Assembly (NCBI RefSeq): GCF_030268225.1
Contig: NZ_BSQG01000011.1
Location: 19,751-83,750, forward strand
Reading direction: 5' to 3'
From: Nocardiopsis ansamitocini
GTDB lineage: Bacteria > Actinomycetota > Actinomycetes > Streptosporangiales > Streptosporangiaceae
Length of the DNA: 64,000 nt
The stretch's first letter is position 1. Each line of letters begins with the position of its first letter. Positions 2,717-24,574 of the stretch are shown here, in pieces. The position numbers and the translations under genes are program-made. The notes under the pieces are model-generated. The model saw only the letters and a program-made list of their open reading frames with translations, made no database searches and was not told the origin of the DNA.

Positions 2717-2740
2717 CGAGTGTTCTCCATTCGACAAACC

Positions 2741-8870: not shown

Positions 8871-8882
8871 GTGCTCTCACCT

Positions 8883-9764: not shown

Positions 9765-10037
9765 AGAAACTCCTGGTCGGACAGAGCGGTGGGTTTCACC
9801 GAACCGTACACGGGGTCTCTCGGGTTTTGTCCAGACTCGGCACCGTTCCTGCACGATGGTATGTTCACCGAGCCAGGGAGCTATACGCCCCCACCCCTTC
9901 CCGACCCACGCGAAAAACCTGGACCGGCAGCCCGAACTCCCCAAGTTAAAGGCGGCAACAACGCCGACGGCACTCAATGGCCGACCTTTTCATTGCGGAT
10001 GACTTTCTCCGAACGCGTACCAGGAAAAGGAAATACC

Positions 10038-11318
10038 GTGCGCATCCTCATAGCGACATACGCAGACAGGTCCTACTTCTTCAGCATGGTGCCACTGGCA
10101 TGGGCGCTGCGGGCCGCGGGTCACGAGGTGCGAGTGGCCAGCCAGCCGGAGCTGACCGACGCGGCCGCAAGCACCGGCCTGACCGTACTCCCGGTCGGCG
10201 AGGACCACATGTCCAGGAAACTGCTGCACTCGCCGGCGACCCAGCAGTACCAGGACTACCAGGAATCCGCCTTCAACCTGGCCGAGGACCGGCCGGAGGA
10301 GCTGACGTGGGACCGCCTCAAGAAGGCGCAACTCCGGTTCGTCGTCTGGTGGTGGAAGGTGATCAACGAACCGATGCTGAAAGAACTCGTGGCCTTCTGT
10401 CGGGAGTGGCGGCCGGATCTGGTGATCTGGGAGCCGATGACCTTCGCCGGGGCAGTGGCCGCCGAGGCGTGCGGTGCCGCCCACGCCCGCTTCCTGTGGA
10501 GCTACGACCTGGTCGGCCAGAATCGCCGGAACTACCTGGAGGCGATGGCGGAGCAGCCCGCGCACGAGCATGCCGACCCGCTGCGCGAATGGCTCACCTC
10601 CCGCGCCGAGCGCTACGACGTCCCCTTCTCCGAGGACCTGATCAGAGGGCAGTTCTCGATCGGCCCCATTCCCGCCTCCCTCAGGGCCGGGGAGCCCGTG
10701 GTCGAGGAGAAGGTGGGCGTGCGCCATGTCCCCTACGAGGGGGCAACCGTCCTGCCCGGATGGCTGCGCACCCCACTCGAGCAGCGACGCGTGCTCGTGG
10801 ACTGGCGGGCGCTGCGGGCCGGTGACCCCGAACGCAGCGAGGCGGTCCTGCGGGAGGTGCTGGCCGGCGCGATCGGCCTGGACGCGGAAGTGCTGCTGGT
10901 CCTTCCGCCGGCGGACCGGGAGACACTCCCCCCCTTCCCCGACCGTGTGCGCGTCATCGAAGAGGGCATCTCCCACATCGTGCTTCCCACGTGCTCCGCG
11001 GTGGTCCACCCCGGAGGGTTCGACACGTACTGCACGTCCTTGCTGCACGGGGTGCCGCAGGTGATCGTCCCCGAGCCGGACCTGTTCGACGCGACGCCAC
11101 TGGCGAGTGCCCTGGCCGACGCCTCCGCGGGCAGCGTGCTCCCCTGGGCGGGGTGCACCGCCGGGGGCGTCCGGGAGCGGCTGGACGAGGTGCTCGGTTC
11201 CGCGGAGATAGCCGCGGGCGTCCGCCGACTCCAGCAGGAGGTACTGGCCATGCCCACACCGGACCTTCTCGTGGCGGAACTGGAACGCCTCACCGTCAAG
11301 CACCGGAAAGAGGACTGA
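10038..11318 (+). CDS. GT1-family glycosyltransferase (antibiotic/macrolide-type)
   Basis: VRILIATYADRSYFFSMVPLAWALRAAGHEVRVAS N-terminal domain and HPGGFDTYCTSLLHGVPQVIVP C-terminal nucleotide-sugar domain. GTG at 10038 with AAAGGA RBS. The remaining upstream part of ORF 8172..11318 is antisense shadow of rmlA/rmlB. Confidence 0.85.
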   Translation: MRILIATYADRSYFFSMVPLAWALRAAGHEVRVASQPELTDAAASTGLTVLPVGEDHMSRKLLHSPATQQYQDYQESAFNLAEDRPEELTWDRLKKAQLRFVVWWWKVINEPMLKELVAFCREWRPDLVIWEPMTFAGAVAAEACGAAHARFLWSYDLVGQNRRNYLEAMAEQPAHEHADPLREWLTSRAERYDVPFSEDLIRGQFSIGPIPASLRAGEPVVEEKVGVRHVPYEGATVLPGWLRTPLEQRRVLVDWRALRAGDPERSEAVLREVLAGAIGLDAEVLLVLPPADRETLPPFPDRVRVIEEGISHIVLPTCSAVVHPGGFDTYCTSLLHGVPQVIVPEPDLFDATPLASALADASAGSVLPWAGCTAGGVRERLDEVLGSAEIAAGVRRLQQEVLAMPTPDLLVAELERLTVKHRKED

Positions 11319-11351
11319 GCCGACCGCGGGCACCCGCTCCGGGGCGAGACT

Positions 11352-12599
11352 TCAGCCGGTGAGGTCGTGGAGGAGGGGGACGAGGTCGGCGGGGGCGGGC
11401 ATGTCCTGCATTTCCCGGCGCAGGCGGTCGGCCGACCGGGCGAACCCCGGCTCCCCGAGCAGCCGTCGTACCCGCTCCCCCACCGTCTCCCCCGTGGCGT
11501 CGGCGGAGTCCAGCGCGAACCCCGCGCCTGCCCGCTCCACCTCCCGGGCCAACAGCGGAGCGTCGAACAACCGGTCCCTTGGGGCGATGACCTGGGGAAC
11601 CCCGTGGGTGAGCGAGGTGAACACGGTCCCCGGCCCGCCCTGGTCGACCATGGCGTGGCAGGTGGGGGTGAGTGCGTGGAGGGGGGCGTAGTCGACGAGG
11701 CGGGTGTTGGGGGGGATGGGTCCGAGGGTGTGGTGGTGGGCGGTGGGGATGGTGGCGATGATTTCGGCGTCGAGGTCGGCGAGTCCGTTGAGGATGTCGG
11801 TGACGGAGACGGTGTAGCCGCCGAAGCGTTCGGAGGCGCTGGTGCCCAGGGTGAGGCAGATGCGGGGTCGGTGGGGTGGGGTGCGCAGCCAGTGGGGGAC
11901 GACGGCGCGCCCGTTGTAGGGGACGTAGCGCATCGGCAGGTACCTGGCGTCGGACAACGGATCGATCCGCAGCGAGGGAGGAACCTGGTCGATGGTGGCC
12001 TGGCCGTGGACGAGTTCTTCGTCATAATCGAGGCCGTAGCGTGCGGCGAGGGCGGTGAGCCAGGCGGCTAGGGGGTCTTCTTGCTGGTCGGGGGGCTGCT
12101 CGCCCATCCGCCGCAGGTACAACCCCCGCATCCGGGAGAACAGGTCGAGGCTCCAGAGGAAGCGGACGTGGGCGGCCCCGCAGGCCCTGGCCGCGATCGC
12201 CCCCGCGAACGTCGTGGGCTCCCAGATCACCAGGTCCGGACGCCACTGGCGGCAGAACGCCACCAGGTCGCCCAGCATCGGCTCGTTGACCATGCGCCAC
12301 CACCAGGTCACCATCTGGCGATAGCCATCCCTCATGTAATCCCAGGTGAGAACCTCGTCGCGGTCTTCACCCATGTCGAAGACCGCGGTCCGGCCGCCGG
12401 CCGCGCGTTTGACCATCCTCGGAAAAGAGTGGTTGCGGCCCACGGGCACGAAGGGCAGTCCGGCACCGGTGACCACACCTTCGAGTTCGGGCTGACTGGC
12501 CACCCGCACCTCGTGCCCGGCCGCCCGCAACGCCCACGCCACGGGAACCATCCCCAGAAAATGCGTCCGCTCGGCCTGGGCCGCGATCACCACGCGCAC
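11352..12599 (-). CDS. GT1-family glycosyltransferase, paralog of 10038..11318, convergent
   Basis: VRVVIAAQAERTHFLGMVPVAWALRAAGHEVRVAS and HAMVDQGGPGTVFTSLTHGVPQVIAP. GTG 12599 with GAGGTGG RBS. Confidence 0.85.
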   Translation of the reverse strand: MRVVIAAQAERTHFLGMVPVAWALRAAGHEVRVASQPELEGVVTGAGLPFVPVGRNHSFPRMVKRAAGGRTAVFDMGEDRDEVLTWDYMRDGYRQMVTWWWRMVNEPMLGDLVAFCRQWRPDLVIWEPTTFAGAIAARACGAAHVRFLWSLDLFSRMRGLYLRRMGEQPPDQQEDPLAAWLTALAARYGLDYDEELVHGQATIDQVPPSLRIDPLSDARYLPMRYVPYNGRAVVPHWLRTPPHRPRICLTLGTSASERFGGYTVSVTDILNGLADLDAEIIATIPTAHHHTLGPIPPNTRLVDYAPLHALTPTCHAMVDQGGPGTVFTSLTHGVPQVIAPRDRLFDAPLLAREVERAGAGFALDSADATGETVGERVRRLLGEPGFARSADRLRREMQDMPAPADLVPLLHDLTG

Positions 12600-12660
12600 G
12601 AATCCCCACCTCTCCCGCACCTGCGCACCGCTTCCCCCGGCGGCTGCGCCCGGCACACGA

Positions 12661-13659
12661 TCATCGCGCGACTGCGCGGGCTTCCCGGCTGTGTTCCGCC
12701 TGCGCCTCGGCCGCACGGATCGTGCTGCCGGTGTACTCCAGGAAGACGTCGTCGAGGGACGGCGGCGTCACCCTGATGGAGCGGACCGGGAACTTCAGGT
12801 CGGCGAACAGGCGCGGAACGAATTCCTCGCCCTCGGCGACCGTGAAGACGACGTTCTCCCCCTCGATCTGCGGAGCGATCCCGAACCGGTCCAGCAGCAC
12901 CGCACCGAGGGCGTCGGCCTCGGCCGAGACCATCTCCACCCGGTCCTTGCCGACGCTCTCCTTGAGCGCCCGGGGGCTGTCCAGCACCGCGATGGAGCCT
13001 TCGTCGATGATGGCGATCCGCTGACAGTTCTCGGCTTCCTCCAGGTAATGCGTCGTCATGAAAACGGTCACGCCGTCGCGCTCGTTGATCTCGCGGATGC
13101 CTTCCCAGATGGCCTGTCTGGTCTGCGGGTCGAGACCGATCGTCGGCTCGTCGAGGAAGAGCACGCGGGGCGAGTGGAGCAGGCCGCGGGCGATCTCCAG
13201 GCGTCGGCGCAGGCCACCGGAATAGGTCCCCACGATCCGGTCCTTGTGGCTGCCCAGGCCGACGGTCTCGATCGCGCGGTCGATCCGCTCCTCCACCAGG
13301 TGCTTGGGAACGGCGTAGATCTCGGCGTGGAACCGGAGGTTCTGCCGTCCGGTCAGGTAGCGGTCGAGGGTCTGCTCCTGGAAGACCAGCCCGATGGTGC
13401 GGCGGACCTCCTGGCGTTGGTGCACGACGTCGTAACCCCCGACGGAAGCGGATCCGCCCGTCGGAGTGAGGAGGGTGCACAGCATCTTGATGACCGTGGA
13501 CTTGCCCGCACCGTTGGGGCCGAGAAAACCGAAGATCTCGCCCGGCTCGACCTCGAAGTCGACGCCCTTGACCGCCTCGACCTCGTCGTAGCGCTTGTGG
13601 AGGCCGCGCGCGGACACGGCAGGGGCGGCGTTTCCTCCGGGCACACCCGAGTGGGTCAC
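12661..13659 (-). CDS. ABC transporter ATP-binding protein (DrrA-like); no cognate permease in the window
   Basis: Walker A GPNGAGKST, signature YSGGLRRRLEIA, Walker B VLFLDEPT. GTG start with GAGGAGG RBS. Confidence 0.85.
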   Translation of the reverse strand: MTHSGVPGGNAAPAVSARGLHKRYDEVEAVKGVDFEVEPGEIFGFLGPNGAGKSTVIKMLCTLLTPTGGSASVGGYDVVHQRQEVRRTIGLVFQEQTLDRYLTGRQNLRFHAEIYAVPKHLVEERIDRAIETVGLGSHKDRIVGTYSGGLRRRLEIARGLLHSPRVLFLDEPTIGLDPQTRQAIWEGIREINERDGVTVFMTTHYLEEAENCQRIAIIDEGSIAVLDSPRALKESVGKDRVEMVSAEADALGAVLLDRFGIAPQIEGENVVFTVAEGEEFVPRLFADLKFPVRSIRVTPPSLDDVFLEYTGSTIRAAEAQAEHSREARAVAR

Positions 13660-13734
13660 CGGGCCAACCTCCTCAAGAGTCGGGCAACAGCTCCGGCCTC
13701 CGGCCGTTTATCGACGTGACCGGCCGTTGCGTGG

Positions 13735-14301
13735 TCAGGACGCGGGCGGACCCGCGGCGAGCGTCCGGACGAACTCAACACCTGCCGTCTCCCACTGCTC
13801 CCGGTAGACGGCGAAGACGTTCGCCGTCCTCAACTGGTCGCCGTCCTTCACGTACTCGGGGAACACGACCTCTTTGACGGCGTCGATCGGGGTGCCGTCC
13901 AGCGCGGCGATCGAGTCGTCGAGCGTCCAGAAGTAGATCTTCCTGATGTTCCACATCGAGAACGCGTAGTTGGCGGTCAGCGCGGTCGCGGCGGTCGCGG
14001 CTCCCGGCCCGCCGCGAGACGGGTCGAGCGCCACGCTGCACTTCACGTAACCGCTGTGCGGGCTGAGTTCGTGCAACGAGGTGTAGCCGACGATCCTCCC
14101 CGACTCCGGGTGCACGATCTCGAACTGGGCGCAGACCTGCTGGTGCGGACCGTTGGGCCAGAGCGACATGGACGTGAAGGCGTCGCGGCTGGGGAGCTTC
14201 TCCAACCCCAGACCGGTCAGTTCCTCGAAAACGGCGCTACCGGTACGGGTCTGAGCGGCGGTGAGCCGGATCCCGAGCGCTTCGGTGTGCGGAATTATCA
14301 C
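13735..14301 (-). CDS. GNAT-family N-acetyltransferase (RimL/acetyltransf_3-like)
   Basis: SRGGPGAATAATALTANYAF matches the acetyl-CoA-binding motif A (R-G-x-G-x-A). GTG start at 14301. The ORF-track 5-prime extension to 14505 overlaps the precursor gene and hairpin and is rejected. Confidence 0.5.
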   Translation of the reverse strand: MIIPHTEALGIRLTAAQTRTGSAVFEELTGLGLEKLPSRDAFTSMSLWPNGPHQQVCAQFEIVHPESGRIVGYTSLHELSPHSGYVKCSVALDPSRGGPGAATAATALTANYAFSMWNIRKIYFWTLDDSIAALDGTPIDAVKEVVFPEYVKDGDQLRTANVFAVYREQWETAGVEFVRTLAAGPPAS

Positions 14302-14348
14302 GTCTGGAAACCCTCGACTACGAAATATTGACTGGCACCAAAGGAGTC

Positions 14349-14378
14349 GGCGTGCGCCGCGCAACCGCGGCGCACGCC
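14349..14378. terminator. perfect 13-bp inverted repeat (GGCGTGCGCCGCG-caac-CGCGGCGCACGCC), 10 nt downstream of the precursor gene stop
   Basis: Read directly. Sits between the precursor peptide and the GNAT gene, like the attenuator hairpins common after RiPP structural genes. Confidence 0.5.
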
Positions 14379-14387
14379 GGTGACCGA

Positions 14388-14489
14388 TCAACCGCAGTTG
14401 AAGTAACTGGCCCCACTGTTGGCCAGAAAAACCTGGTCGGACTCGATTTCCAACTCCTGAAGGGAGAGGATGTCGGAAAGCGTCATCAT
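14388..14489 (-). CDS. lanA1: class III lanthipeptide precursor peptide candidate (33 aa): MMTLSDILSLQELEIESDQVFLANSGASYFNCG
   Basis: Not in the ORF track (below its size cutoff). AAAGAGGTGG Shine-Dalgarno immediately upstream. The leader carries an ILELQ-like motif (DILSLQELEIE). The core carries exactly one Ser-x-x-Ser-x-x-x-Cys motif (SGASYFNC), the labionin/lanthionine-forming pattern of class III substrates. Confidence 0.6.
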   Translation of the reverse strand: MMTLSDILSLQELEIESDQVFLANSGASYFNCG

Positions 14490-15286
14490 GCCACCTCTTT
14501 CTCAATCACTAGGACGCCGCGAAAATCGCCCGCACCCCAGGGTCCGGGCCAATAATCGAAGGCGAAAGGATAAGTTAGGAGCACACCACGCTATCGGAAG
14601 CAGACCCCTTGAGAAACCGAAGAAAGCAGAACTGCCCTTTCAGCTGCCATCAAAAGTAGGCCAATGCGTCCGAACGCGCAAGAATAGGCACCCGAAACGA
14701 AATTGGCCCTCCTCCCGACGGGTCCCGCCGGCGGGACACCCGGTCCGCCCCCGCAGCCGGTGGACCACACGTTGCCCCTGATGTCCCCACGCCTCCCCAC
14801 CAGCGGCTCCGACGCCTGGAGGCCCTTCGTCCCCGCCCGCGCACTACCGCCGGTGACCTGCCCCGAACGGCTCACCCCCGGCACCATCCGACCTTCCCGC
14901 ACACCAGTGGGCCGGCGCCGGTGTCCCCCTATTCTTGGCCACGGCACAGTCGCGTCCGGCACGATCGACGATCGTCGTGCGCACCGCCCATCCGTCCGTC
15001 TCACGTCCCCGGCATGTCCTGCGGAGGCACGCCGGAAAAGAAAGACCGGGCACCGGGGCGGGAGACACCGATCCGCCCCGAGCGCCGGGACGGCGCGGGG
15101 CCGGGAGAGCGACGGGAGACCGCTTCGCGCCGTGGCTCTCGCGGCCAGGAAGCGGGACGACGGCCCCGATGACGCCTGGCCCCGGCGGGCACCTGGTGCC
15201 GGCCTTTGACACTCTTCGGCAGGGGAGACAGCGCACAGACGGTCCTCTTCCGGGCTGACGGACCGATTCGGCAGGGAAGGATATGG

Positions 15287-16609
15287 ATGGTGATGAGCGA
15301 TCAGGCCGCGCGGATCCTCGACGAGGTCCGCGCCTACCACCGGGAGACCCAGCAGGAACAGGAGTTCATTCCGGGTGTCACCGAGATCTGGTCATCCGGC
15401 GCGGTTCTCGACGAAGAGGACCGGGTGTCTCTGGTCGAGGCCGCCCTGGAGATGCGGATCGCAGCGGGCAGGAACTCGCGCAAATTCGAGTCCATCTTCG
15501 CCCGCAGGCTGAACCGGCGCAAAGCCCACCTGACCAACTCCGGTTCGTCGGCGAACCTGCTCTCCCTGTCGGCGCTGACGTCGCACCTGTTGGAAGAACG
15601 CCGGCTCCGGCCCGGCGACGAAGTGATCACGGTCGCCGCGGGGTTCCCCACCACCGTCAACCCGATCCTGCAGAACGGGCTGATCCCGGTATTCGTGGAC
15701 GTCGAGCTGCGGACCTACAACACCACCGCCGATCGGGTGGCTCAAGCGATCGGTCCGCGCACCCGGGCGATCATGATCGCGCACGCGTTGGGCAACCCGT
15801 TCGAGGCCACCGAAATCGCCCAGTTGGCCGAGGACAACGACCTGTTCCTGATCGAGGACAACTGCGACGCCGTGGGCTCCACCTACGACGGGCGACTGAC
15901 GGGTTCCTTCGGCGACCTGTCGACGGTGAGCTTCTATCCGGCCCATCACCTCACCATGGGCGAAGGCGGCTGCGTGCTCACCTCGAACCTGGTTCTGGCC
16001 CGGATCGTGGAGTCGATGCGCGACTGGGGGCGGGACTGCTGGTGCGAACCCGGGGAGAGCAACACCTGCCACAAGCGGTTCGCCTACCAGCTGGGCACGC
16101 TGCCGGCCGGGTACGACCACAAGTACACCTTCTCCCACGTGGGCTACAACCTGAAGGGAACCGATCTTCAGGCGGCTCTCGGTCTGAGCCAACTCACCAA
16201 ACTCGACGGGTTCTCAGCGGCCCGGCGTCGCAACTGGCGCCGGCTGCGCGAGGGTCTCGACGGCCTGCCGTGGCTGCTGCTTCCCGAGGCGACACCGCGC
16301 GGCGATCCGAGCTGGTTCGGTTTCGTTATGACTGTTTCGCCAGCGGCACCGTTCAGCAGAGCGGAACTGGTCGAGTTCCTGGAGAACCGAAAGATCGGTA
16401 CCCGCCTGCTGTTTGCCGGGAATCTGACACGGCACCCCGCGTACATCGACCGCCCCCACCGCGTGGCCGACGACCTGACCAACAGTGACCTGATCACGGA
16501 GCAGACGTTCTGGACCGGTGTCTATCCGGGACTCACCGACGAGATGCTCGACTACGTCATCTCCTCCATCACCGAGTTCGTGAAGACACGCGGGGGCTCT
16601 GGCCATTGA
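15287..16609 (+). CDS. NDP-4-keto-6-deoxyhexose 3-dehydrase (E1/ColD/SpnQ-type, PMP- and [2Fe-2S]-dependent member of the DegT/DnrJ/EryC1 aminotransferase fold)
   Basis: [14 protein letters not shown] has His where aminotransferases have the PLP lysine. Exact C-X57-C-X1-C-X7-C spacing (EDNC ... [13 protein letters not shown]), the E1 iron-sulfur signature. ATG 15287 with GGAAGGA RBS. Confidence 0.85.
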
Positions 16610-16814
16610 ACACGACCGGCACGGCCTGGAAAATGATTCCCCGAGCGGTTAACAGTCGACTTCCCCAGCGGGATAAATACGGCCGGAGAACAACCCGACT
16701 TCCATTTTCGCCGCGTGGCGGGTAATTTCTGTTCACGCTGTCCGGTTAACTCGGGACAGCGACTCGCACACTGGACTATCAGATTTCGAGTAGACCTGAG
16801 GAGGTGATTATTTC

Positions 16815-16934
16815 ATGGCACTCTCGGACGTCCTGCTTCTCCAGGGAATGGAGATCGAGACGGCGGGCAACGATGTCCCCCTTCTCGGAAGTGGTTTGAG
16901 CATTACCGGCTGCACCGTACTGCAGGCCGCATAG
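16815..16934 (+). CDS. lanA2: class III lanthipeptide precursor peptide candidate (39 aa): MALSDVLLLQGMEIETAGNDVPLLGSGLSITGCTVLQAA
   Basis: Not in the ORF track. GAGGAGGTG RBS 10 nt upstream. Leader LSDVLLLQGMEIET parallels the other precursor (LSDILSLQELEIES). Core has a single S-x-x-S-x-x-x-C motif (SGLSITGC). TAG stop. Confidence 0.65.
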   Translation: MALSDVLLLQGMEIETAGNDVPLLGSGLSITGCTVLQAA

Positions 16935-17053
16935 TCCGCGATTATGCGGTCACATTGGGTTCGGACCCGTGATGATCCGTGGCACTGCTTTTCGCGGTTC
17001 GAATAGCAGGGCCGCGGGGAATGAGCGGCGAAGCGGACCCACAGGTGGGGAGC

Positions 17054-17081
17054 GGGGCCTCGCGGACGACCGCGAGGCCCC
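17054..17081. terminator. perfect 12-bp stem hairpin (GGGGCCTCGCGG-acga-CCGCGAGGCCCC) between convergent lanA2 and the hydrolase gene
   Basis: Read directly from the sequence. Confidence 0.55.
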
Positions 17082-17118
17082 GTTGCGTATGCGGGCCCCT
17101 GCCGCGTACGGCTGTGCC

Positions 17119-17979
17119 CTAGAGAAAGGCGCGCAGTGCGGCGTGGAACTCCTCCGGGCGGTCCCGGGGGAGCAGGTGGCCGGCATCCGGGACGCGCAGA
17201 AGATCCGCGCCGGGAATGAGCCGGGCCGTCTCCTCGACGGCGCTCAGCGGAACGACGGAGTCCCGGTCACCGCGCACCACCAGCGTCGGACAGGCGATGT
17301 GCCTGAGCAGTGGGCGCAGGTCGGTGCGCATTCGGCGCCACCCGTACGAGGAGATCTGCCAGTCGTCCATGACCAGTTCTCCGGCCTCGCGTTTGCTCCG
17401 CATCTCCTGCTCGGCAAGTGCGACGATCTCGGCGAAGTCGGGATGGTCCGCGCCTTCGACCAGGGCGGCTCGAAGCGAGACGCGGATCAGGGCAGGACTG
17501 TGGGCGAACAGCGCCGTGGTGAGCCGGAGCAGGCCGGGCGTGCGCAGATAGAGGTACGTCGAGCCCTGTGCCACCCGTCTGCCTTCCATCCCGCCGGGGG
17601 CGACGAGGACCAGGCGTTCGACGCGGTCGGGGTTGCGAGCCGCGAACCCCGCGGCGATACCGCCGCCGAGGGAGAGCCCCACCAGCCTGGCGCTCGCCAG
17701 GCCGCAGTGGTCCATCAGCTCGGCCACCGCCTCTTCCAGACCGGCCTGGCCGGTGGGGCCGTGCCAGGGACGGCTCCCGCCGTGGCGCGGCCAGTCCAGG
17801 GCAAACACCCGGTATCCGTCCTGGAGGGCCGGGATGGCAGCCCCCCAGACGAGCGGGGCGGTGTCGAGCATGGCGCCGTGCAGCAGGATCACAGCGGGGC
17901 CGGTGTTCCCGGCCCGGTAGTAGCGGAGCGGCCCGTGGGCGGTCGTGATGGTGTGTGCGGTCGCGCTTGTCAAAGGCAT
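17119..17979 (-). CDS. alpha/beta-fold hydrolase
   Basis: GLSLGG nucleophile elbow and HG oxyanion motif near the N-terminus (ILLHGAM). Confidence 0.8.
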   Translation of the reverse strand: MPLTSATAHTITTAHGPLRYYRAGNTGPAVILLHGAMLDTAPLVWGAAIPALQDGYRVFALDWPRHGGSRPWHGPTGQAGLEEAVAELMDHCGLASARLVGLSLGGGIAAGFAARNPDRVERLVLVAPGGMEGRRVAQGSTYLYLRTPGLLRLTTALFAHSPALIRVSLRAALVEGADHPDFAEIVALAEQEMRSKREAGELVMDDWQISSYGWRRMRTDLRPLLRHIACPTLVVRGDRDSVVPLSAVEETARLIPGADLLRVPDAGHLLPRDRPEEFHAALRAFL

Positions 17980-17997
17980 GGCTGGGGCCTCCTGGAG

Positions 17998-18684
17998 CTA
18001 CCCGGTGGGTTCGGGGGACTGGGTGCCGTCCCCGGAGAGAGGGGTGGCGATGAAATCGGTGAAAGCGCGCCGGCCCTCGGTCGGATCGGCGTCGGCGTCG
18101 CCCTCGAAGCCTCCGGCCAGCAGTGCGGCAACGGCGTCCAGCGTCGATTCCAACGGAGGCGCCGCCTCGCTGCCGACGGTGGATTCGATGCTGATCAGAC
18201 CGGTGGAGATGATGGCGAGGACGTGCGCGACGGACTGCGCGTCGAGGTCGGTGCGGATCAGTCCGGCTTCCTGCATGCGAACGACGAACGCGACTGCCCA
18301 TCGCTGCCGGGGCGCATAGCGCTCGGGGCCGTACCCGCGCACGAGGTCACCGAGGGTCTGGCTGTCAGCGGTGTAGAGCGCCCGCATGAGGGGGTCCGCA
18401 GCGAGGGCTTCCAGTGCATGCCGGTAGATCGCCGAAAGCCTGCCGCCCTGGGGGTCGGCCGTGACCGCCTCGGTGGTCGTCCGGGCCAACCGGTGGGTCT
18501 GGCGGAGCAGCAATGCCTCAAGGACCGCTTCCTTGCTGGCGAACTCCTGGTAGACGGCGCCCTTGGCGATCCCGGCGGTGCGCGCGATGTCGCTGACGCT
18601 GGTCTTGTCGTAGCCGTAGCGGGCGATCAGTCCCGCTGCCGCATCCAGGATCCGCCCGGCCCGTTCGATCCCTGCCCGCACCAT
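17998..18684 (-). CDS. TetR-family transcriptional regulator
   Basis: N-terminal HTH: YDKTSVSDIARTAGIAKGAVYQEFASKEAV. Confidence 0.85.
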   Translation of the reverse strand: MVRAGIERAGRILDAAAGLIARYGYDKTSVSDIARTAGIAKGAVYQEFASKEAVLEALLLRQTHRLARTTTEAVTADPQGGRLSAIYRHALEALAADPLMRALYTADSQTLGDLVRGYGPERYAPRQRWAVAFVVRMQEAGLIRTDLDAQSVAHVLAIISTGLISIESTVGSEAAPPLESTLDAVAALLAGGFEGDADADPTEGRRAFTDFIATPLSGDGTQSPEPTG

Positions 18685-18694
18685 ATTGACTCCA

Positions 18695-18718
18695 TGACCA
18701 ATTTAGTTTTTCTGGTCA
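18695..18718. promoter_or_regulatory. palindromic operator-like site TGACCA-n12-TGGTCA, 11 nt upstream of the tetR start
   Basis: catgaccaatttagtttttctggtcaca, read directly, in an AT-richer patch. Confidence 0.45.
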
Positions 18719-18786
18719 CAGACTAGCGCACTGTTCGTCGGACCGTCCACGCCTCGACCGGGAACGAGGCGTGGACACTCCCGTGA

Positions 18787-19680
18787 TCAGCGGGAAAGGG
18801 GCTCGCGCACTTCCAGGGTGCAGCACTTGGGGCCGCCGCCCGCCTTGGCGAGCTCGCTGGTGTCCACGAGGACGGGGTGGTATCCCCGCTCGCGCAGGTC
18901 GGCGACGAGGCCGCCGGCCTGGACCGGCAGGACGACGTTGCGACCGTCGCCGACGGCGTTGAGTCCCAGGACCGCGGCGTCTTCCTCCCCGACGGCCAGT
19001 GCATCGGGGAACAGACCGGTCAGTGCCGCACGCCCCTCAGGGGTGAACGCCCCGGGGAAGTAGGCGATGTCGGGCCGGTCCGAGGCGCGACCGTCGTCCA
19101 GGACCGCGATCGCCGTGTCCAGGTGGTAGAACCGCGGGTCCACCAGTTGGAGCGAGACCACGGGACGCCCGAACAGCTCCTGGACCTCCCGGTGTGCGGC
19201 GGGCTCGGTCCGAAAGCCGGTGCCCGCGAGAATGCAGCGCTCGGTGACCAGGAAGTCGCCCTCCCCCTCGTTCACGGCACTCGCCTGCACGGCCCTGGCC
19301 ACCCCGCCGGCCAGCCAAGCGCGATGCGCGAGGGTCTCGGGTGCACGCTCGGGGTGTCGAAAACGCGCCTCGTAGGCGACCCCGTCCACGATGGTCGCAC
19401 CGTTGGCGGTGAACACCATGTCGGGCAGGCCGGACAGTGGCTCCAGGAGACTGACCCGGTGCCCCAACCCCAGGTAGGCGTCGCGCAGCCCGTTCCACTG
19501 CGCGGCGGCGAGCCCCCGGTCGACCGGGATTCCCGGGTCCATCCAGGCGTTGATCGCGTATTGGACGTCGAAGTAGTCGGGCGGGCACATGACGTAGTGG
19601 CGGGCGACGGCGATGCGGTCGGGCGTCTCGACCAGCAGGGACGTTGGGCTCATGAGAGAAAACATAGAATCCGCCGCCAA
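18787..19680 (-). CDS. amidinotransferase-superfamily protein (dimethylarginine dimethylaminohydrolase-like)
   Basis: Length around 290 aa. C-terminal GGGPKCCTLE (catalytic Cys region) resembles DDAH/arginine deiminase-type enzymes. Confidence 0.6.
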   Translation of the reverse strand: MAADSMFSLMSPTSLLVETPDRIAVARHYVMCPPDYFDVQYAINAWMDPGIPVDRGLAAAQWNGLRDAYLGLGHRVSLLEPLSGLPDMVFTANGATIVDGVAYEARFRHPERAPETLAHRAWLAGGVARAVQASAVNEGEGDFLVTERCILAGTGFRTEPAAHREVQELFGRPVVSLQLVDPRFYHLDTAIAVLDDGRASDRPDIAYFPGAFTPEGRAALTGLFPDALAVGEEDAAVLGLNAVGDGRNVVLPVQAGGLVADLRERGYHPVLVDTSELAKAGGGPKCCTLEVREPLSR

Positions 19681-19888
19681 CGCTGAACAATAGCGATATT
19701 AAGCGTCTGACCAGCGTTTTCATGCAATTAATCAACCCAAGCAGCTTGTTCATTGCGCCCATTCGCCCGCATCGCCCCGGAGAAGCGCACCGGTGCCGCG
19801 GGACGGGCGCGACCACCGGCGTCCCCGGTGAATCGCCCGCCCCGCGGCGAACGCGGAAGCGGCCGTAGCCGCACGGGATCGTCCCTGT

Positions 19889-22015
19889 TCAGGCGGGCAC
19901 GGATGCCACGTCGCGATCCCAGACCCGGTGGGCGGCGACCAGTCGGGCGAATGCCTCGTGCAGTTCGCGGCCGTCCCCGCCCCGGAAAGTGGCCACCCCC
20001 TGGTCGACGACGACACCGTCGCCGTCGGCTGCCGTGCGCAGCCGGGGCAGTGGGAGCCGGCCCAACAGGTCGACCCCCTCGTCGAGGGCTGCCACCGGTT
20101 TGGCGTGCTTGAACGCCTCGGTCACGAAGAACAGGGCGCCGCCGTCGCTGCCCAGCGTGGCGACACTGTCGGCCCCGCCCGCCACGAGCACCGCGTCGTA
20201 GAGGACCGAAGCGACGGTACTCATGGCACGGTCCACGGCCAGGGACGAGCCATTGGACGCTCTGACCTGCCCGTCGACAGGTGCGAGCAGTTCCACCACG
20301 GCCCCGCGCCCGGTCATGGCGTCGCGGAAGGCCGCGACCGCGTCGCCGCCCACCCCGTCGGCGACCAACACGGCGATCTGGCGGCCGAACACGGTGTCGG
20401 CCGCTTGGCCGGCCTGGCTGAGCGCGGGTGAGCGGCGACCATGGTTGGTCACCTGGGCCGTGGCCGGCGGGGCGACACCGATTCCCGACGCCACCTGAAC
20501 GGCGAGTCCGTGGTCGACGCGGTTGAGGTTCTCCACGACACGCTCGCGGACCCGGAGGTCCTCGCATTTGCCGAGTTCGAAGCGGAACGCCGCCACCACG
20601 TGCGCGCGCTCCCAGTCGGCCAGGCTGTTGTAGAAGAGGGTCGCCTGCGAGTAGTGGTCCTGGAAGCTGTCGCTGCGCTTGCGGATCTTCACCCCGTCGA
20701 CCCGCTCCTGGTAATGGCGGTAGGCGTTCGCGTCGGCAAGCGCCGGGCATCCGCCGCCCAACGAATTGGGGTGGTAGCTGGTGTGCCCCCGGTGCACCAG
20801 CTGCTGCCCGGATCCGTCCCGCTGGTTGTTGCTGACCTCGTTCACCGGACGGTTGACCGGGATCTGTTGGAAGTTGGGCCCGCCGAGCCTGGTGAGCTGG
20901 GTGTCGAGATAGGAGAAGTTGCGGGCCTGGAGCAACGGGTCGTTGGTGAAGTCGATCCCCGGGACCACATTGGCGGTGTGGAAGGCGATCTGCTCGGTCT
21001 CCGCGAAATAATTGTCGGGGTTGCGGTTGAGCACCATCCTGCCCACCGGAGTGACCGCGACCTCCTCCTCGGGCAGGAGTTTGGTGGCGTCGAGCAGGTC
21101 GAAGTCGAACTTGTGCTCGTCGCTCTCGGGGACGAGTTGGACGCCGAGCTCGTATTCGGGATAGCGGCCCTGCGCGATCGCATCCCACAGGTCGCGCCGG
21201 TTGAAGTCGGGGTCCTTGCCCTGGATCTTCTGTGCCTCGTCCCAGACCAGCGAGTGCGTGCCCAGCACCGGCCTCCAGTGGAACTTCACGAAGGTGCCTT
21301 CTCCCCGGTCGTTCACCAGGCGGAAGGTGTGCACCCCGAACCCCTGCATCGTGCGGTAGCTGCGGGGAATCGAGCGGTCCGACATCATCCACATCATCAT
21401 GTGCATGGTCTCGGGTTGCAGGCCCACGAAGTCCCACAGGGTGTCGTGCGCGGACTGGGCCTGCGGGATCTCGTTGTGCGGCTCCGGCTTGACCGCGTGC
21501 ACGAAGTCGGGGAATTTGATGCCGTCCTGGATGAAGAACACCGGGATGTTGTTGCCGACCAGGTCGTAATTGCCCTCTTGGGTGTAGAACTTGGTCGCGA
21601 ATCCGCGCACGTCACGTACGGTGTCGGCCGAGCCACGGGATCCCGCGACCGTGGAGAACCGGACGAACACCGGCGTCCGCACGGCCGGATCACTGAGGAA
21701 GTGCGCCCTGGTGTGGCGGGAGAGGGACGCGTAGGGCTGGAAGTAGCCGTAGGCGCCGGCCCCGCGCGCGTGCACGACCCGCTCCGGAATCCGCTCGTGG
21801 TCGAAACGGGTCATTTTCTCCCGGAAGTGGAAGTCCTCCAGGAGCGTGGGCCCCCGCTCCCCCACGCCGAGCGAGTTGTCGGTGTCGTCGATCAACACCC
21901 CGTTGTCGGTGGTGAGGTCACCGCGCGAGTCGGTGCGTACCCCGTCGAGCTGGCGGTCCTTGGCGTCGGCGTCGTGGTCACGGAATTCGGTCATGGAGCG
22001 GCCTCGTTTCGACAT
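19889..22015 (-). CDS. katE: large-subunit catalase HPII
   Basis: [33 protein letters not shown] and the distal-His region. 708 aa with a C-terminal flavodoxin-like extension, typical of KatE. Confidence 0.9.
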
Positions 22016-22114
22016 CGTCGCGCCGGCTGCTCTCGACGCGACGGGAACGGCTGGTGCCCCGAGCCTTCTGACCCTGCCTCCGTACGGTGAAACTCCGCTG
22101 GATGCGGGGCACGG

Positions 22115-22745
22115 TCACCTGAGGCCAAGCTCCCGGCGCACCTTGCGGTAGGTGCGACCTGGCAGGGGGGAGACAAGGCCCCAGGGAAGGTGCTCGGGCA
22201 TACGGTTACCGGCCCCACCCAGCACGTACCTGGCCCGGTCGAGGTCACCGCTGTAGTAGAGGGCCGCGCCGAAGAGGTGGGCGGTACCCACGTTCGTGGG
22301 GTGCGCCCACGCCCGGCTCAACCAGCAGTCCGCCGCCCACGCCAGTTCCGCCGCGTGGGCCGGGTGGCCGAAATAGGCACTGGCGCCCTTCGACGCGGGC
22401 TCGGTGGTGTCGTCCAACCGGCGCCGAAGAATCTCGAAGTGGGCGATCGGAAGAACCACGGTCCGGGGATCGCCCGGGGCTGCCGTCTTCACGGTGTGGC
22501 GGGCAAAGCCGAGCAGTTCCCTGTGCGAACCGGCCCACTTCTCGCACTGTTCCCGGGCCCGGGAACAGTGTCCTTCCAGCAGGTGGGGCCCGGTGGCACG
22601 GCTTCGCCCAGATCCGGTCCAGTCATCGATGGCGCCCAAGGCCCAGACGAAAGCTTTTCGCACAAGCGTGAGCTGTATGGTGCGGCGCGCGCACCCTTGC
22701 CCGCACCGTTTCGTCCCGGGCAGCCAACCCAGCAGGCCGAGTCGC
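22115..22745 (-). CDS. hypothetical protein
   Basis: Very high GC3 in this frame. The 5-prime end is truncated to avoid overlap with the downstream PLD gene. No family recognised. Confidence 0.3.
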
Positions 22746-22757
22746 ACCGACCTCGGA

Positions 22758-23996
22758 TCAGAGCAGGGGGCGCAACGGGACGAGGACCAACTCGCTGAAC
22801 TTGGCCACAAGCGGACGCCTGCGCCACTCCTCCTCGGTGAGGGGACGGGCGTTGGCACTGTCCGCGGTGAACACGTCCTCCAGGTGGGAGGCAACGCCGC
22901 TGTCGAAGATCTCGACGTTGATCTCGTAGTTGCCGGTCAGACTCAGCCGGTCGACGTTGGCGGTGCCGATCGTGCTCCACTGCCCGTCGATGGTGGCGGT
23001 CTTGGCGTGCACCATGGCGTCCTGGTAGAGCCACAGGGTCACCCCGCCGCGCAGCAGCGTGGTGTAGAAACCGCGGGACAACCAGTCGGCGACGACGTGG
23101 TTGGAGATCTCCGGCACCAGGATGCGCACGTCCACTCCGCGCCGGGCTGCGGCCAGCAGCGCCCCCAGGATCTCGTGGTCGGGGATGAAGTACGCCTGGG
23201 TGATGTAGATGTGATCCCTGGCGCGGTCGATCGCCTCCAGGTAGAGCGCCCGGATGGGATAGATGAGCAGCTCGGGAATGTTGCGGTGCGCGCGGATCGT
23301 GGGGTTCCAGTCGGCGGCGCCGATCGGGTCCAGCCAGGGCTGTCCGGCTTTTCGGTGCGTGTTCCAGAAATCGGAGAAGGCGTTCTCCAGCTCCCACACT
23401 GCGGGACCGGCCACTCTCAGGTGGGTGTCGCGCCACTGCGTGGCATAGACCGAGCCCACGTTGTAGCCGCCCACGAAACCGGTGCGGCCGTCCACGGTGA
23501 GGATCTTGCGGTGGTCGCGACCGGACTTGCGCACGTTGAACAGCAGAACACCGGGGCGAAACACCGGATAGCAGATGACGTTGACCGGCCGCGGGAAACG
23601 GAAGAACTTCCGCGGCACGACGAGGTTGGCGAACCCGTCGTAGATCACGAAGACGTCGACTCCGCGCTCAGTGGCGTCGATCAGCGCACGCTTGAACTCC
23701 CGGCCCACCGCGTCGTCCTTGATGATGAACGACTCGAACAGGATCCGGCGCTGAGCACCCCTGATCGCGGCGAGCATGTCGTTGTAGACGTCCTCACCGT
23801 AGGTGTAGGTGGTGGCGACGGTCTCGCCCACCGGAAGCGACTTCGGCTTGGTTCGGGGGAAACCTCCGCGCTGCGGACGGAACCGCTTGCGCCAACTGTC
23901 GATGCCGATGAGTCCCGCGATCACTGTGATCTGAGCCGCGAACAAGCCGAGCAGCGCGCGCTTGACAATCGTCTTGATGGTGCTGCGTCTCAGCAT
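22758..23996 (-). CDS. phospholipase D-family protein (cardiolipin synthase-like, two HKD motifs)
   Basis: HRKILTVDG and HAKTATIDG. N-terminal TM helix. ATG 23996 with GGAGG RBS. The ORF-track N-terminal extension to 24623 is rejected. Confidence 0.85.
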   Translation of the reverse strand: MLRRSTIKTIVKRALLGLFAAQITVIAGLIGIDSWRKRFRPQRGGFPRTKPKSLPVGETVATTYTYGEDVYNDMLAAIRGAQRRILFESFIIKDDAVGREFKRALIDATERGVDVFVIYDGFANLVVPRKFFRFPRPVNVICYPVFRPGVLLFNVRKSGRDHRKILTVDGRTGFVGGYNVGSVYATQWRDTHLRVAGPAVWELENAFSDFWNTHRKAGQPWLDPIGAADWNPTIRAHRNIPELLIYPIRALYLEAIDRARDHIYITQAYFIPDHEILGALLAAARRGVDVRILVPEISNHVVADWLSRGFYTTLLRGGVTLWLYQDAMVHAKTATIDGQWSTIGTANVDRLSLTGNYEINVEIFDSGVASHLEDVFTADSANARPLTEEEWRRRPLVAKFSELVLVPLRPLL

Positions 23997-24139
23997 GTGA
24001 AATGACCTCCGGTGCCGCGAATGACGAAACTGCAGCCGTTCTCTGGCTTCACCCGCTCCCGCCGACGGCAGGGAATGGCCAACGCTACCGCGCGGTGACG
24101 ACTCACGGCTGCGGCATGACGGGGGGTGCCCTCCGGGTC

Positions 24140-24574
24140 TCACCCGGGCCCGGCACCGGGAGCGGGCACCGGATCCACCGGGGTTTCGAGGGCGGGTTCC
24201 TCCTGGGGTCCGGGTGCGGGAGCGACAGGAGGCGCCGGGGTCGCTCCGCAGAGCAGCGTCGGCCGTTTGACCCGGTCGCGCAGAGCGCTTGCGCTGACCG
24301 GGTCGTCGGACAGGAGCAGATCGCGCAGATCGTTCAGGTCGGGACCGGTGATCGTGCAGGGTACTTTGCCCCGAGGCGTCCAGACCTCGAACCCCTGACC
24401 GTCCCCTTCCGGTTGGGAAGCGGTGGGCTCGTCGGCCACCGCCTCGCCCGCCTCGGGTCCGGTGGTGTCGGCGGCCACCGGACCCACGCAGCAAAGGGAC
24501 AGGGTCGTCGCAGCCACGGCCGTTGCCGCCGCACCGAAGAGACGACCGGTGGGCCGTACCCGGCGGCCGGTCAC
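24140..24574 (-). CDS. secreted Pro/Ala-rich hypothetical protein (signal peptide)
   Basis: N-terminal hydrophobic signal AAATAVAATTLSLCCVGP. ATGA overlap with the upstream small gene. Confidence 0.45.
   Translation of the reverse strand: MTGRRVRPTGRLFGAAATAVAATTLSLCCVGPVAADTTGPEAGEAVADEPTASQPEGDGQGFEVWTPRGKVPCTITGPDLNDLRDLLLSDDPVSASALRDRVKRPTLLCGATPAPPVAPAPGPQEEPALETPVDPVPAPGAGPG

Follow-up and report, generated by a model that had tools for sequence, protein, structure and literature searches.

A class III lanthipeptide cluster of about 17 kb lies in the window, the whole 64-kb stretch of Nocardiopsis ansamitocini DNA that was analyzed here, and contains one annotated precursor gene, P1 (14388 to 14489, minus strand; NCBI WP_285761587.1), encoding a short peptide of 33 amino acids (MMTLSDILSLQELEIESDQVFLANSGASYFNCG). 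A preliminary description proposed a second precursor, P2, at positions 16815 to 16934 on the opposite strand. This raises the question whether P2 is a genuine gene and, if so, whether both precursors are parts of one product or give rise to two products of the same synthetase.

Translation of 16815 to 16934 on the plus strand yields MALSDVLLLQGMEIETAGNDVPLLGSGLSITGCTVLQAA followed by a stop codon, so that the position, the strand and the length of 39 amino acids are as had been proposed. Since an in-frame TGA is located at 16797 to 16799, the ATG at 16815 is the only possible start of P2. The ribosome binding site claimed for the gene could be read directly from the sequence: GAGGAGGTG (16798 to 16806, plus strand) is located 8 nt upstream of the ATG. 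The leader comprises approximately residues 1 to 25 and includes SDVLLLQGM, within which the segment D5-V-L-L-L-Q-G-M12 satisfies the LxLQ-type motif, known as the leader motif of class III precursors (PMC7268733). The core, SGLSITGCTVLQAA, carries one SxxSxxxC motif, which is the single SGLSITGC described before (S26-G-L-S29-I-T-G-C33).

Spurious ORFs are plentiful in high-GC genomes, and in the window 172 ORFs of at least 30 amino acids overlap positions 9000 to 26000 (17 kb). P2 might be such a chance frame or a non-coding feature, for instance a regulatory RNA or a terminator region, and the antisense frame over P2 also has a positive codon score (17.7); the P2 frame itself scores highest of the six frames (codon-usage log-odds 23.6 bits). 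Apart from the strong ribosome binding site, the motif combination argues against chance: the leader motif [ILVMF][ILVMF]xLQx[LMIV] has only five matches in the 128,000 residues of the six-frame translation of the whole window, and it is followed by SxxSxxxC at the P1 and P2 sites only. We further used a family HMM built from 21 relatives from other genomes, with both P1 and P2 left out. P2 matched this model with 47.7 bits (E 5.7e-14) and P1 with 49.5 bits, the next-best ORF of the window, an unrelated one, reaching 6.0 bits. Searching 1.84 billion representatives exhaustively with HMMER and a profile of P1 and P2 recovered small homologues, and homologues are present at the same position in other genomes. 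These HMMER homologues, the positional homologues and the family HMM effectively refute the reading of P2 as a chance ORF, which we regard as extremely unlikely. Two repetitive proteins among the HMMER matches (P0003, 168 amino acids, and P0007, 203 amino acids) were discarded as spurious, only their core segment being aligned.

When 5.8 billion proteins were searched with a profile, 24 clusters of the family emerged, of which 14 carry the name Nocardiopsis or Sinosporangium. Other searches were less productive: the word-indexed protein search with the P1 and P2 alignment (one artificial Met added, 40 amino acids) returned only P1, and a contig scan with back-translated P1 and P2 patterns gave 105 matches, none of which was confirmed as a relative by tblastn, the patterns being too specific and the source genome apparently missing from that collection. 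P1 had no exact match in the contig index either. A collection of 15 billion proteins contains P1 (WP_285761587.1) but no sequence identical to P2. Thus, P2 appears to be without existing annotation, as had been stated. In the class as a whole, 55% of precursors lack an annotation and 43% reside in multi-precursor clusters (PMC7268733).

The genes around both precursors were assigned with profile models and by comparison with related loci. The only lanthionine synthetase found among the window ORFs scanned is the class III enzyme LanKC (144 to 3023, minus strand), which contains RamC_N, kinase and LanC-like domains and matches NF038151 with 960.8 bits (cutoff 575). Next to it lies a block of conserved accessory genes (3125 to 7662, minus strand), syntenic with N. 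alba, N. ganjiahuensis and S. album, that encodes a DUF4429/SHOCT protein (3125 to 4045), a SAM methyltransferase (4166 to 4999), a MIO aromatic amino-acid lyase (5000 to 6616) and a short 4-coumarate-CoA-ligase-like adenylating enzyme (6508 to 7662). Genes for a dTDP-glucose 4,6-dehydratase (7878 to 8870, minus strand) and a glucose-1-phosphate nucleotidylyltransferase (8883 to 9977, minus strand) are located beside two genes for EryCIII-like glycosyltransferases of the activator-dependent family (about 10101 to 11318, plus strand, and 11352 to 12716, minus strand; TIGR04516 399 and 507 bits), of which orthologues are found in all related clusters. The ATPase of a DrrA-like ABC transporter (12661 to 13659, minus strand) has orthologues with 63-65% identity in N. 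alba ATCC BAA-2165 (locus L002) and in metagenome locus L005. Immediately downstream of P1 a GNAT-fold protein of about 188 amino acids is encoded (13735 to 14301, minus strand; match to the SpeG, RimJ/RimL acetyltransferase profile with E 1.4e-9), which belongs to a paralogue family whose members are located behind precursors of types B and C in related clusters.

A 3-dehydrase gene had been reported to separate the two precursors, and it proved to be of the RfbH type, encoding a PMP-dependent NDP-hexose 3-dehydrase (15206 to 16609, plus strand; NF011936 669.8 bits, cutoff 423; start codon uncertain). P2 is located 205 nt downstream of it on the same strand, at the edge of the cluster and 13.8 kb from LanKC; the same spacing and synteny are observed in N. 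alba. Unlike type B and C precursors, P2 has no GNAT-like gene behind it.

Comparison of the related loci led us to define a family of single-ring precursors from Nocardiopsis and Sinosporangium, in which three types (A, B and C) are distinguished. N. alba ATCC BAA-2165 (L002) has three tandem type A genes and GCA_030271535.1 (L009) four; each encodes 39 amino acids, and the arrays directly follow the DegT/RfbH orthologue on the same strand (DegT 8219 to 9541 and precursors from 9809 in L002; DegT 8049 to 9371 and precursors from 9654 in L009). P2 occupies precisely this position, co-directional with and directly downstream of the RfbH gene (15206 to 16609), which is 76% identical to the gene preceding the N. 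alba precursors. The surroundings of the N. alba array are syntenic with the window as well (46-76% identity over five matched proteins). A scan of contigs with LanKC added one locus, from N. alba DSM 43377 (L001), in which no precursor was found, the contig stopping 1.4 kb past the sugar genes.

The likeness extends to the peptides. Type A precursors of N. alba (for example AFR07687.1, B005_1458) and of GCA_030271535.1 share with P2 the length of 39 amino acids, a leader with [SN]D[VI]LxLQ, a 15-residue spacer, PL[LM] before the ring and an SGxSxxxC ring that is followed by [ST]V[AL]Qxx. The LQ motif and the first ring Ser of P2 are separated by 15 residues, as in the type A peptide of N. alba that was measured, and the 13 residues of types B and C come close to this. 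The clusters also agree in architecture, with RfbH/DegT before the type A genes, a hairpin and a convergent gene behind them, and a syntenic LanKC, glycosyltransferase and sugar cluster. They differ in the number of type A copies, three in N. alba and four in GCA_030271535.1 but one in the window, and in an invariant Cys that is Gly in P2; in addition, the window contains the extra short type C precursor P1.

All family-invariant residues (D5, L7, L9, Q10, S26, S29 and C33) are kept in P2, as is the near-invariant G27, which is replaced by Ser in one N. alba peptide. At position 25, however, P2 has Gly where Cys is found in each of the 16 other type A peptides seen, and its identity to the aligned type A peptides is only 41-49%; P2 could therefore be drifting. 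Judged by sequence and position, P2 is a diverged counterpart of the 39-amino-acid type A precursors located behind the corresponding sugar gene of N. alba, and P1, positioned next to a GNAT-like gene, represents the short type C.

This divergence leads to the question whether P2 is a paralogue in decay or fallen silent, an intact-looking relic of a type A array, with P1 as the sole working substrate. P2 is the most diverged type A sequence, having lost the otherwise invariant Cys25, it is the one copy left where relatives have three or four, it lies at the cluster edge, and its GC3 (0.72) is below that of the neighboring genes (0.85-0.9). On the other hand, the ORF is intact and preceded by a consensus ribosome binding site, every family-invariant residue as well as G27 is retained, and the family HMM score of 47.7 bits nearly equals that of the annotated P1. 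Against the N. alba homologues, pN of P2 (0.37-0.42) is lower than pS (0.61-0.74), values that come from only 38 codons and from synonymous rates near saturation. In addition, a promoter-like block is conserved upstream of P2: in an alignment with the region upstream of the first N. alba precursor the main conserved block consists of two promoter-like hexamers 16-17 nt apart. In the window these are TTCCAT (16700 to 16705) and TAATTT (16723 to 16728), separated by a 17 nt spacer on the plus strand; a candidate P2 promoter (16700 to 16728) is something we infer only from this conservation with N. alba. The candidate overlaps a terminator-like call at 16707 to 16722, and a sigma-70 consensus scan of 13600 to 17300 found no promoter. 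Weighing these observations, we consider decay of P2 quite unlikely.

The family HMM match, the positional homologues in N. alba and GCA_030271535.1 and the lower pN also bear out the earlier proposal that P2 is a second precursor paralogous to P1, and this reading is strongly supported. As claimed, the leaders are paralogous: in a BLASTP comparison P1 and P2 are identical at 16 of 33 positions (E 2e-7), and at the invariant leader residues all five codon differences are synonymous third-position changes. The cores had been called very different, which they are not, as both contain a single S-G-x-S-x-x-x-C ring motif and the P2 core corresponds to this shared motif plus a 6-residue tail relative to P1. 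All in all, the data make it very probable that P2 is a genuine lanA, encoding the second class III precursor of the cluster and a substrate of the shared LanKC in its own right.

With two precursors and one synthetase, the preliminary description had left the choice between a two-component product and two products. In the first case, P1 and P2 would each supply one half of a class III lanthipeptide whose two components are obligatory, acting only together or joined. Both have one leader type and one LanKC in common, and short ring-only precursors occur together with longer tail-bearing ones in the window, in N. dassonvillei (L011) and in the metagenome loci L005 and L006, while S. album pairs one SY-ring with one SI-ring precursor. 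The precursor sets of the related clusters do not follow such a pairing: one type C gene in N. ganjiahuensis, three type A in N. alba, four type A in GCA_030271535.1, two type B and one type C in N. dassonvillei and two C-like in S. album. The short precursor of N. ganjiahuensis is the only one within 10 kb on either side, and in the N. alba and GCA_030271535.1 loci only type A and no short-type precursor was found; neither type thus requires the other, and obligate co-occurrence of the types across related clusters was not observed. Clusters with one to four precursors, in mixed types and including single-precursor and A-only sets, argue against an obligate two-component system and for several products per LanKC. 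Multi-precursor class III clusters are, moreover, common (PMC7268733), and the lanthipeptide reviews consulted gave no example of a two-component product of class III. A two-component product is therefore unlikely; the other half of the earlier proposal fits the comparative data better, and the single synthetase most likely has P1 and P2 as distinct substrates, each leading to a product of its own.

Among NCBIfam and Pfam families, the only ones that P2 matched are those of class III precursors (SapB_AmfS_lanti, lanthi_III_b, lanthi_III_c and RamS), and with the published precursor models NF033212, NF038154, NF038159, NF038160 and PF19402 all its scores were below the cutoffs; the best scores were 16.2 bits (cutoff 25), 14.1 (27), 13.6 (30) and, for RamS, 17.1 (24.3). 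P1 scores 16.5 bits with a published precursor model, below the cutoff of 30. Since SapB_AmfS_lanti and RamS are the best curated matches, and since NCBI/UniRef name 10 of the 24 relatives, and likewise P1, 'SapB/AmfS family lantipeptide', P2 could be an aerial-growth surfactant of the SapB/AmfS type and not the scaffold of a tailored metabolite. SapB has two rings, however, while P2 has one ring motif, and its scores remain below the cutoffs (16.2 versus 25 and 17.1 versus 24.3 bits). Its neighbors are deoxysugar, glycosyltransferase, GNAT, lyase and ligase genes and not an operon of the ramCSAB/amf type. With the cutoffs missed and the ram/amf operon context absent, membership of P2 in the SapB/AmfS family was rejected, and a morphogen function is very unlikely.

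As a probable precursor of its own product, P2 can be compared with characterized class III systems. Labyrinthopeptins have, like the window, more than one precursor per LanKC; they contain two ring motifs and a disulfide, their precursors adjoin labKC and, to our knowledge, they are not glycosylated. P2 differs from them in having one ring motif, in its distance of 13.8 kb from LanKC and in being surrounded by many tailoring genes. LabA1/LabA2 with LabKC, the class III prototype, share with P2 the ILELQ-type hydrophobic leader motif required by LanKC and the SxxSxxxC motif, which gives labionin in labyrinthopeptins; for LabKC, the hydrophobic positions of ILELQ are indispensable and the length of the spacer is important as well (PMC8341899).

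Among class III lanthipeptides, reviews of 2020 and 2025 name a single glycosylated one, NAI-112 (AplA/AplKC/AplG). Like the window, its cluster combines a LanKC-made peptide with a glycosyltransferase, the NAI-112 sugar being a 6-deoxyhexose. NAI-112 is N-glycosylated on Trp after ring formation, whereas P2 and P1 contain no Trp. In addition, no sugar-pathway genes are mentioned in the review's seven-gene description of its cluster, while the window has two EryCIII-like glycosyltransferases and dTDP-sugar genes including the 3-dehydrase. An assignment to the NAI-112-like group was rejected, as glycosyltransferases are present but a core Trp is lacking in both P2 and P1.

In goadvionin biosynthesis, as at P1 in the window, a GNAT-family gene (GdvG) accompanies the precursor. 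The precursors of lipolanthines and goadvionins (microvionin, MicA/MicKC/MicD) resemble P2 in their very short core and the single SxxSxxxC-derived ring system made by LanKC (PMC8341899). Their Cys is C-terminal, while Cys33 of P2 is followed by six residues, and their LEQLEALD-type leader motif is different from that of P2. No HFCD/LanD decarboxylase and no PKS/FAS genes were found in the window ORFs scanned. With neither a LanD-type decarboxylase nor fatty-acid/PKS genes there, and with Cys33 internal, the lipolanthine/avionin assignment was rejected too. For the N. alba-type relatives, or any other member of the cluster family, no characterized product was found in the literature searched.

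From class III biochemistry, a pathway for P2 can be proposed. P2 would be translated from its own strong ribosome binding site, and its amphipathic N-terminal SDVLLLQGM ('ILELQ'-type) would be bound by the single LanKC (144 to 3023). This enzyme would phosphorylate Ser26 and Ser29 and eliminate the phosphates, giving dehydroalanines, and addition of Cys33 would then form one lanthionine or labionin ring in S26-G-L-S29-I-T-G-C33. Removal of the leader would leave a core of about 14 residues, SGLSITGCTVLQAA, which is probably glycosylated with a dTDP-deoxysugar by the EryCIII-like glycosyltransferases and may be methylated or acylated before the tailored product leaves via the ABC transporter. 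An aryl-acid cap (p-coumaroyl or beta-tyrosyl) might be supplied by the MIO lyase and the 4-coumarate-CoA-ligase-like enzyme, with GNAT-like proteins transferring it. The acceptor residue, the identity of the sugar and any acylation of P2 are purely conjectural.

Following P2 brought to light a conserved cluster family with deoxysugar genes, glycosyltransferases, GNAT-like genes and a tyrosine-lyase/ligase pair. Its gene set comprises LanKC, a methyltransferase, GNAT-like paralogues, an ABC transporter, two EryCIII-like glycosyltransferases, dTDP-sugar genes and a tyrosine-type MIO lyase with a coumarate-ligase-like enzyme, and most members also encode a DUF4429 protein. P2 itself is an ordinary kind of gene, and the cluster family around it is the more interesting object: since the reviews of 2020 and 2025 name no glycosylated class III lanthipeptide apart from NAI-112, the family is a concrete target, and a tractable one, in the search for new RiPP tailoring chemistry. 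Tentatively, and with considerable doubt, P1 and P2 may be seen as scaffolds of an uncharacterized class III subclass of tiny single-ring peptides, here encountered in Nocardiopsis and Sinosporangium, in which EryCIII-like glycosyltransferases would attach a dedicated dTDP-deoxysugar (3-deoxygenated via the RfbH-type enzyme), perhaps together with a tyrosine-derived aryl-acid cap, and tailed and tail-less congeners would be functionally distinct. For the cluster of the window, the consequence is that it has two precursor substrates and not one, and a product prediction or mass spectrometry search from P1 alone would miss P2, an unannotated representative of the precursor type that clusters of the N. 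alba group carry in multiple copies.

The right-hand end of the cluster is probably marked by a G+C-rich hairpin (17051 to 17084) between P2 on the plus strand and a convergent alpha/beta-hydrolase gene on the minus strand. A 12-bp-stem hairpin about 120 nt downstream of P2 had been noted before; it is real, starts 119 nt past the stop codon and is stronger than described. Its core consists of 13-nt perfect arms (17053 to 17065 and 17070 to 17082), which RNAfold extends to a 15-bp stem with -39.3 kcal/mol (z = -5.5), and none of 200 shuffled sequences was equally stable. This hairpin is likely a bidirectional terminator and the right-hand cluster edge; a comparable strong hairpin follows the last precursor of the N. 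alba type A array (L002) and is itself followed by a convergent gene. A small 12-bp hairpin over the P2 stop codon (16925 to 16951, plus strand) has -18.1 kcal/mol (z = -2.8), and 3 of 200 shuffles were as stable. Downstream of P1, a 14-bp hairpin (14348 to 14379, minus strand; -35.7 kcal/mol) is located 9 nt past the stop codon.

The 120-nt reading frame at 16815-16934 (+) encodes P2, a candidate class III lanthipeptide precursor of 39 aa, and translates to MALSDVLLLQGMEIETAGNDVPLLGSGLSITGCTVLQAA. Because an in-frame TGA is located at 16797-16799, the ATG at 16815 is the only possible start; it lies 8 nt downstream of the ribosome binding site GAGGAGGTG (16798-16806). Among all six frames the P2 frame has the highest codon-usage log-odds (23.6 bits). 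A hairpin with perfect arms of 13 nt (17051-17084; 15-bp stem, -39.3 kcal/mol and z = -5.5 by RNAfold) starts 119 nt past the stop codon and separates P2 from the convergent alpha/beta hydrolase gene (17119-17979, -). Both the 39-aa reading frame with its ribosome binding site and the hairpin about 120 nt downstream had been claimed in the preliminary description and are borne out. A second hairpin of 12 bp (16925-16951) overlaps the stop codon.

Comparison of intergenic regions revealed TTCCAT-N16/17-TAATTT upstream of both P2 and the first Nocardiopsis alba precursor; the conserved hexamers upstream of P2 (16700-16705 and 16723-16728, +) can be proposed as a candidate promoter. The putative 5' UTR has a perfect 8-nt inverted repeat, CGCTGTCC N10 GGACAGCG (16736-16761, +), downstream of the candidate -10 element and upstream of the ribosome binding site; it may act as an operator or fold as an RNA hairpin.

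The 33-aa precursor P1 (14388-14489, -, the strand opposite to P2) translates to MMTLSDILSLQELEIESDQVFLANSGASYFNCG, the exact sequence of WP_285761587.1, which is named "SapB/AmfS family lantipeptide [Nocardiopsis ansamitocini]". BLASTP aligned P1 and P2 with 16/33 identities (E 2e-7), confirming the proposed paralogy of their leaders, and at invariant leader residues all five codon differences are synonymous and at the third position. When all 64 kb were translated in six frames, P1 and P2 were the only sites where a leader motif of class III type preceded an SxxSxxxC. The exact P2 sequence had no match in a collection of 15 billion proteins, consistent with its unannotated status. The stretch of ~700 bp that separates P1 from the divergent RfbH gene (14490-15205) contains no convincing ORF, shows flat codon-position GC (0.74/0.72/0.76) with G+C of up to ~72% (14701-15300), and is unusually long for a promoter or regulatory region between divergent genes.

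Curated models matched P1 and P2 weakly and solely as class III precursors, and the P2 scores (SapB_AmfS_lanti 16.2, lanthi_III_c 14.1, lanthi_III_b 13.6, RamS 17.1 bits) were below the cutoff of every precursor model matched. A profile of P1 and P2 recovered small homologues (exhaustive HMMER search, 1.84 billion representatives), and an 11-member profile yielded 24 clusters from 5.8 billion proteins, 14 of them named Nocardiopsis or Sinosporangium album and the remaining ones without an organism name. With both window peptides excluded, a leave-out profile of 21 relatives gave 47.7 bits (E 5.7e-14) for P2 and 49.5 bits for P1, against 6.0 bits for the top-scoring segment among the remaining 1094 translated ones (>=20 aa); the window therefore contains exactly two family members.

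Three precursor types were distinguished: type A (39 aa, ...ELASEETPLMCSGxSxxxCSVAQxx), type B (40 aa, ...LLNSGLS[YL]xGCSGDVIxxPx) and type C (32-33 aa, ...LLNSGxSYxxC[SG]). With the type A length, the two additional spacer residues of that type, PLL ahead of the ring and a tail of the form C-[ST]-V-[AL]-Q, P2 is a diverged type A; P1 is type C. The residue before the ring motif is Gly in P2, Asn in types B and C, and Cys in the other type A peptides observed (PLMC-SGxSxxxC, 16/16), which carry two Cys per core. In the N. alba products (ATCC BAA-2165 locus, 9809-10287), the extra Cys could allow a further ring or a disulfide bond. Unannotated precursors were also observed in N. dassonvillei GCA_040632005.1 (type C, 16918-17016, +, MVLSDVLSLQEMDTVLDEAVLLNSGLSYVGCS) and GCA_030271535.1 (GTG-initiated, fourth type A, 9654-9773, +).

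Genes in the window (G+C 68.7%) were called with Pfam and NCBIfam. On the minus strand are LanKC, the class III lanthionine synthetase (144-3023; NF038151, 960.8 bits, cutoff 575), a DUF4429/SHOCT protein (3125-4045), a methyltransferase (4166-4999), an MIO aromatic amino-acid lyase (5000-6616), a short AMP-binding enzyme (6508-7662; top match 4-coumarate-CoA ligase), a dTDP-glucose 4,6-dehydratase (7878-8870) and a nucleotidylyltransferase (8883-9977). EryCIII-like glycosyltransferases (GTs) follow on the plus (~10101-11318) and minus (11352-12716) strands, then an ABC ATPase (12661-13659, -), a GNAT-like protein (13735-14301, -), P1, an RfbH-type 3-dehydrase (15206-16609, +; 669.8 bits, cutoff 423) and P2. 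The alpha/beta hydrolase, TetR, dimethylargininase and catalase genes past the P2 hairpin appear unrelated to the cluster, and ORFs scanned to 57.8 kb are a mixture of sugar-uptake/catabolism, kinase/phosphatase and unrelated ATPase genes; P2 therefore sits at the right-hand edge of the cluster. A gene pair at 30902-38012 (+), encoding an SPFH/Band-7 protein (707 aa) and a DUF3686/DUF7902/AAA-ATPase protein (1659 aa), has no relation to the lanthipeptide cluster.

In N. alba ATCC BAA-2165 (CP003788), the order is 4,6-dehydratase, nucleotidylyltransferase, GT(+), GT(-), ABC ATPase, GNAT-like, epimerase, isomerase and DegT(+), followed on the same strand by three tandem type A precursors (9809-9922, 10001-10120, 10168-10287), past which lie a strong hairpin and then a gene in convergent orientation. 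Identities to the window are 76% (RfbH), 65% (ABC ATPase), 56% (GT) and 46% (GNAT-like). The GCA_030271535.1 locus is arranged identically and carries four precursors in tandem, one unannotated. The left half is syntenic in N. alba DSM 43377 (nucleotidylyltransferase, dehydratase, AMP-binding, lyase, methyltransferase, LanKC; LanKC identity 57%). P2 thus occupies the position of the N. alba precursors. Against these, P2 shows pS of 0.61-0.74 and pN of 0.37-0.42 (Nei-Gojobori; near saturation, 38 codons), and the lower pN fits purifying selection in this frame. In the S. album locus, an unannotated 137-aa tblastn match to the window LanKC (5812-6213, +; 44% identity) could represent a fragment or pseudogene of LanKC inside the cluster; no intact LanKC was found within the 10.5 kb fetched.

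The leave-out score and the N. alba positional homologues support the original reading of P2 as a second unannotated precursor, and P2 is very probably a genuine LanKC substrate gene. It has the sequence and context of a class III LanA, reaches none of the curated precursor-model cutoffs and is predicted to work like a class III LanA. As an ordinary unannotated class III precursor gene it is unsurprising in itself; it matters for product prediction and led to a conserved cluster family that deserves experiments and for which the literature searched gave no characterised member. SapB/AmfS membership was rejected on score and on context. Unlike NAI-112, the only glycosylated class III lanthipeptide named in the reviews consulted, P2 contains no Trp, the acceptor residue, and an NAI-112-like reading was rejected on this ground. 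A lipolanthine reading was rejected since the ORFs scanned include neither LanD nor PKS/FAS genes and the P2 Cys is not C-terminal. A literature search of incomplete coverage returned no paper with these peptide sequences or this cluster family.

Two alternatives had been offered for P1 and P2, a two-component product or two products from one synthetase. Precursor content varies: one A and one C in the window, three A in N. alba, four A in GCA_030271535.1, two B and one C in N. dassonvillei and two metagenome loci (L005, L006), one C in N. ganjiahuensis and two C-like in S. album. Some clusters have a single precursor or a single type, which makes an obligate P1-P2 pair, and with it the two-component alternative, unlikely. 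The second alternative fits better: each locus with LanKC in the fetched DNA (L005, L006, N. ganjiahuensis, N. dassonvillei, window) has one copy, and a common recognition helix with a single synthetase fits "several substrates, one LanKC". Such an arrangement is common in class III, where multi-precursor clusters account for 43% of precursors and 55% of precursors lack annotation (PMC7268733). Because tail-less and tail-bearing peptides recur together, some functional differentiation between them is conceivable.

Recognition by LanKC depends on the hydrophobic positions in ILELQ and on a leader-core spacer of sufficient length (PMC8341899); P2 resembles the other type A peptides in this respect, with D-V-L-L-L-Q-G-M in the leader and 15 residues between the LQ and Ser26. 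LanKC would phosphorylate and eliminate at Ser26 and Ser29, and Cys33 would add onto the dehydroalanines, giving lanthionine or labionin. The leader would then be removed, typically in class III by unlinked Zn-peptidases and aminopeptidases, and the EryCIII-like GTs would glycosylate the core with a sugar derived from dTDP-4-keto-6-deoxyhexose and 3-deoxygenated by the RfbH-type enzyme.

In the window lyase the MIO motif is ASG and the selectivity segment reads "A-H-L", which we take, by RsTAL His89, to point to tyrosine. The adjoining 4-coumarate-CoA-ligase-like enzyme scored 60.7 bits, far under the 334.7 cutoff, and the GNAT-like proteins are of the SpeG and RimJ/RimL fold type (E 1.4e-9); an additional aryl-acyl modification by these genes is speculation. 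The lyase/ligase-like pair adjoins the sugar genes and is conserved in Nocardiopsis (window 5000-7662, -; N. alba DSM 43377 3510-6165; N. ganjiahuensis 15578-18189, followed by KAS III and acyl-CoA dehydrogenase), with the methyltransferase and LanKC also beside it in the window and N. alba DSM 43377; S. album has at least the ligase-like gene (9714-10352). The pair hints at a tyrosine-derived aryl acid (p-coumaroyl or beta-tyrosyl) on the peptide.

Most of the clusters encode a conserved DUF4429 (+/- SHOCT) protein (window 3125-4045, -; S. album 3666-4568; L005 8091-8855; N. ganjiahuensis 2844-3620; N. dassonvillei 11995-12759), and the N. alba loci showed none; the literature searched contained no paper that mentions the domain. 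The ~185-aa GNAT-fold family (SpeG and RimJ/RimL-like), with an invariant NYAF..W..RK block, has one to four copies per cluster (window 13735-14301, -; S. album 607-1149 and 5316-5873; L005 5019-5621, 6431-6988, 12502-13083 and 13353-14003). Core N-acylation and immunity are possibilities for its function. Each type B and each type C precursor has a copy directly 3' of it, and P2 and the type A precursors have no neighbouring copy.
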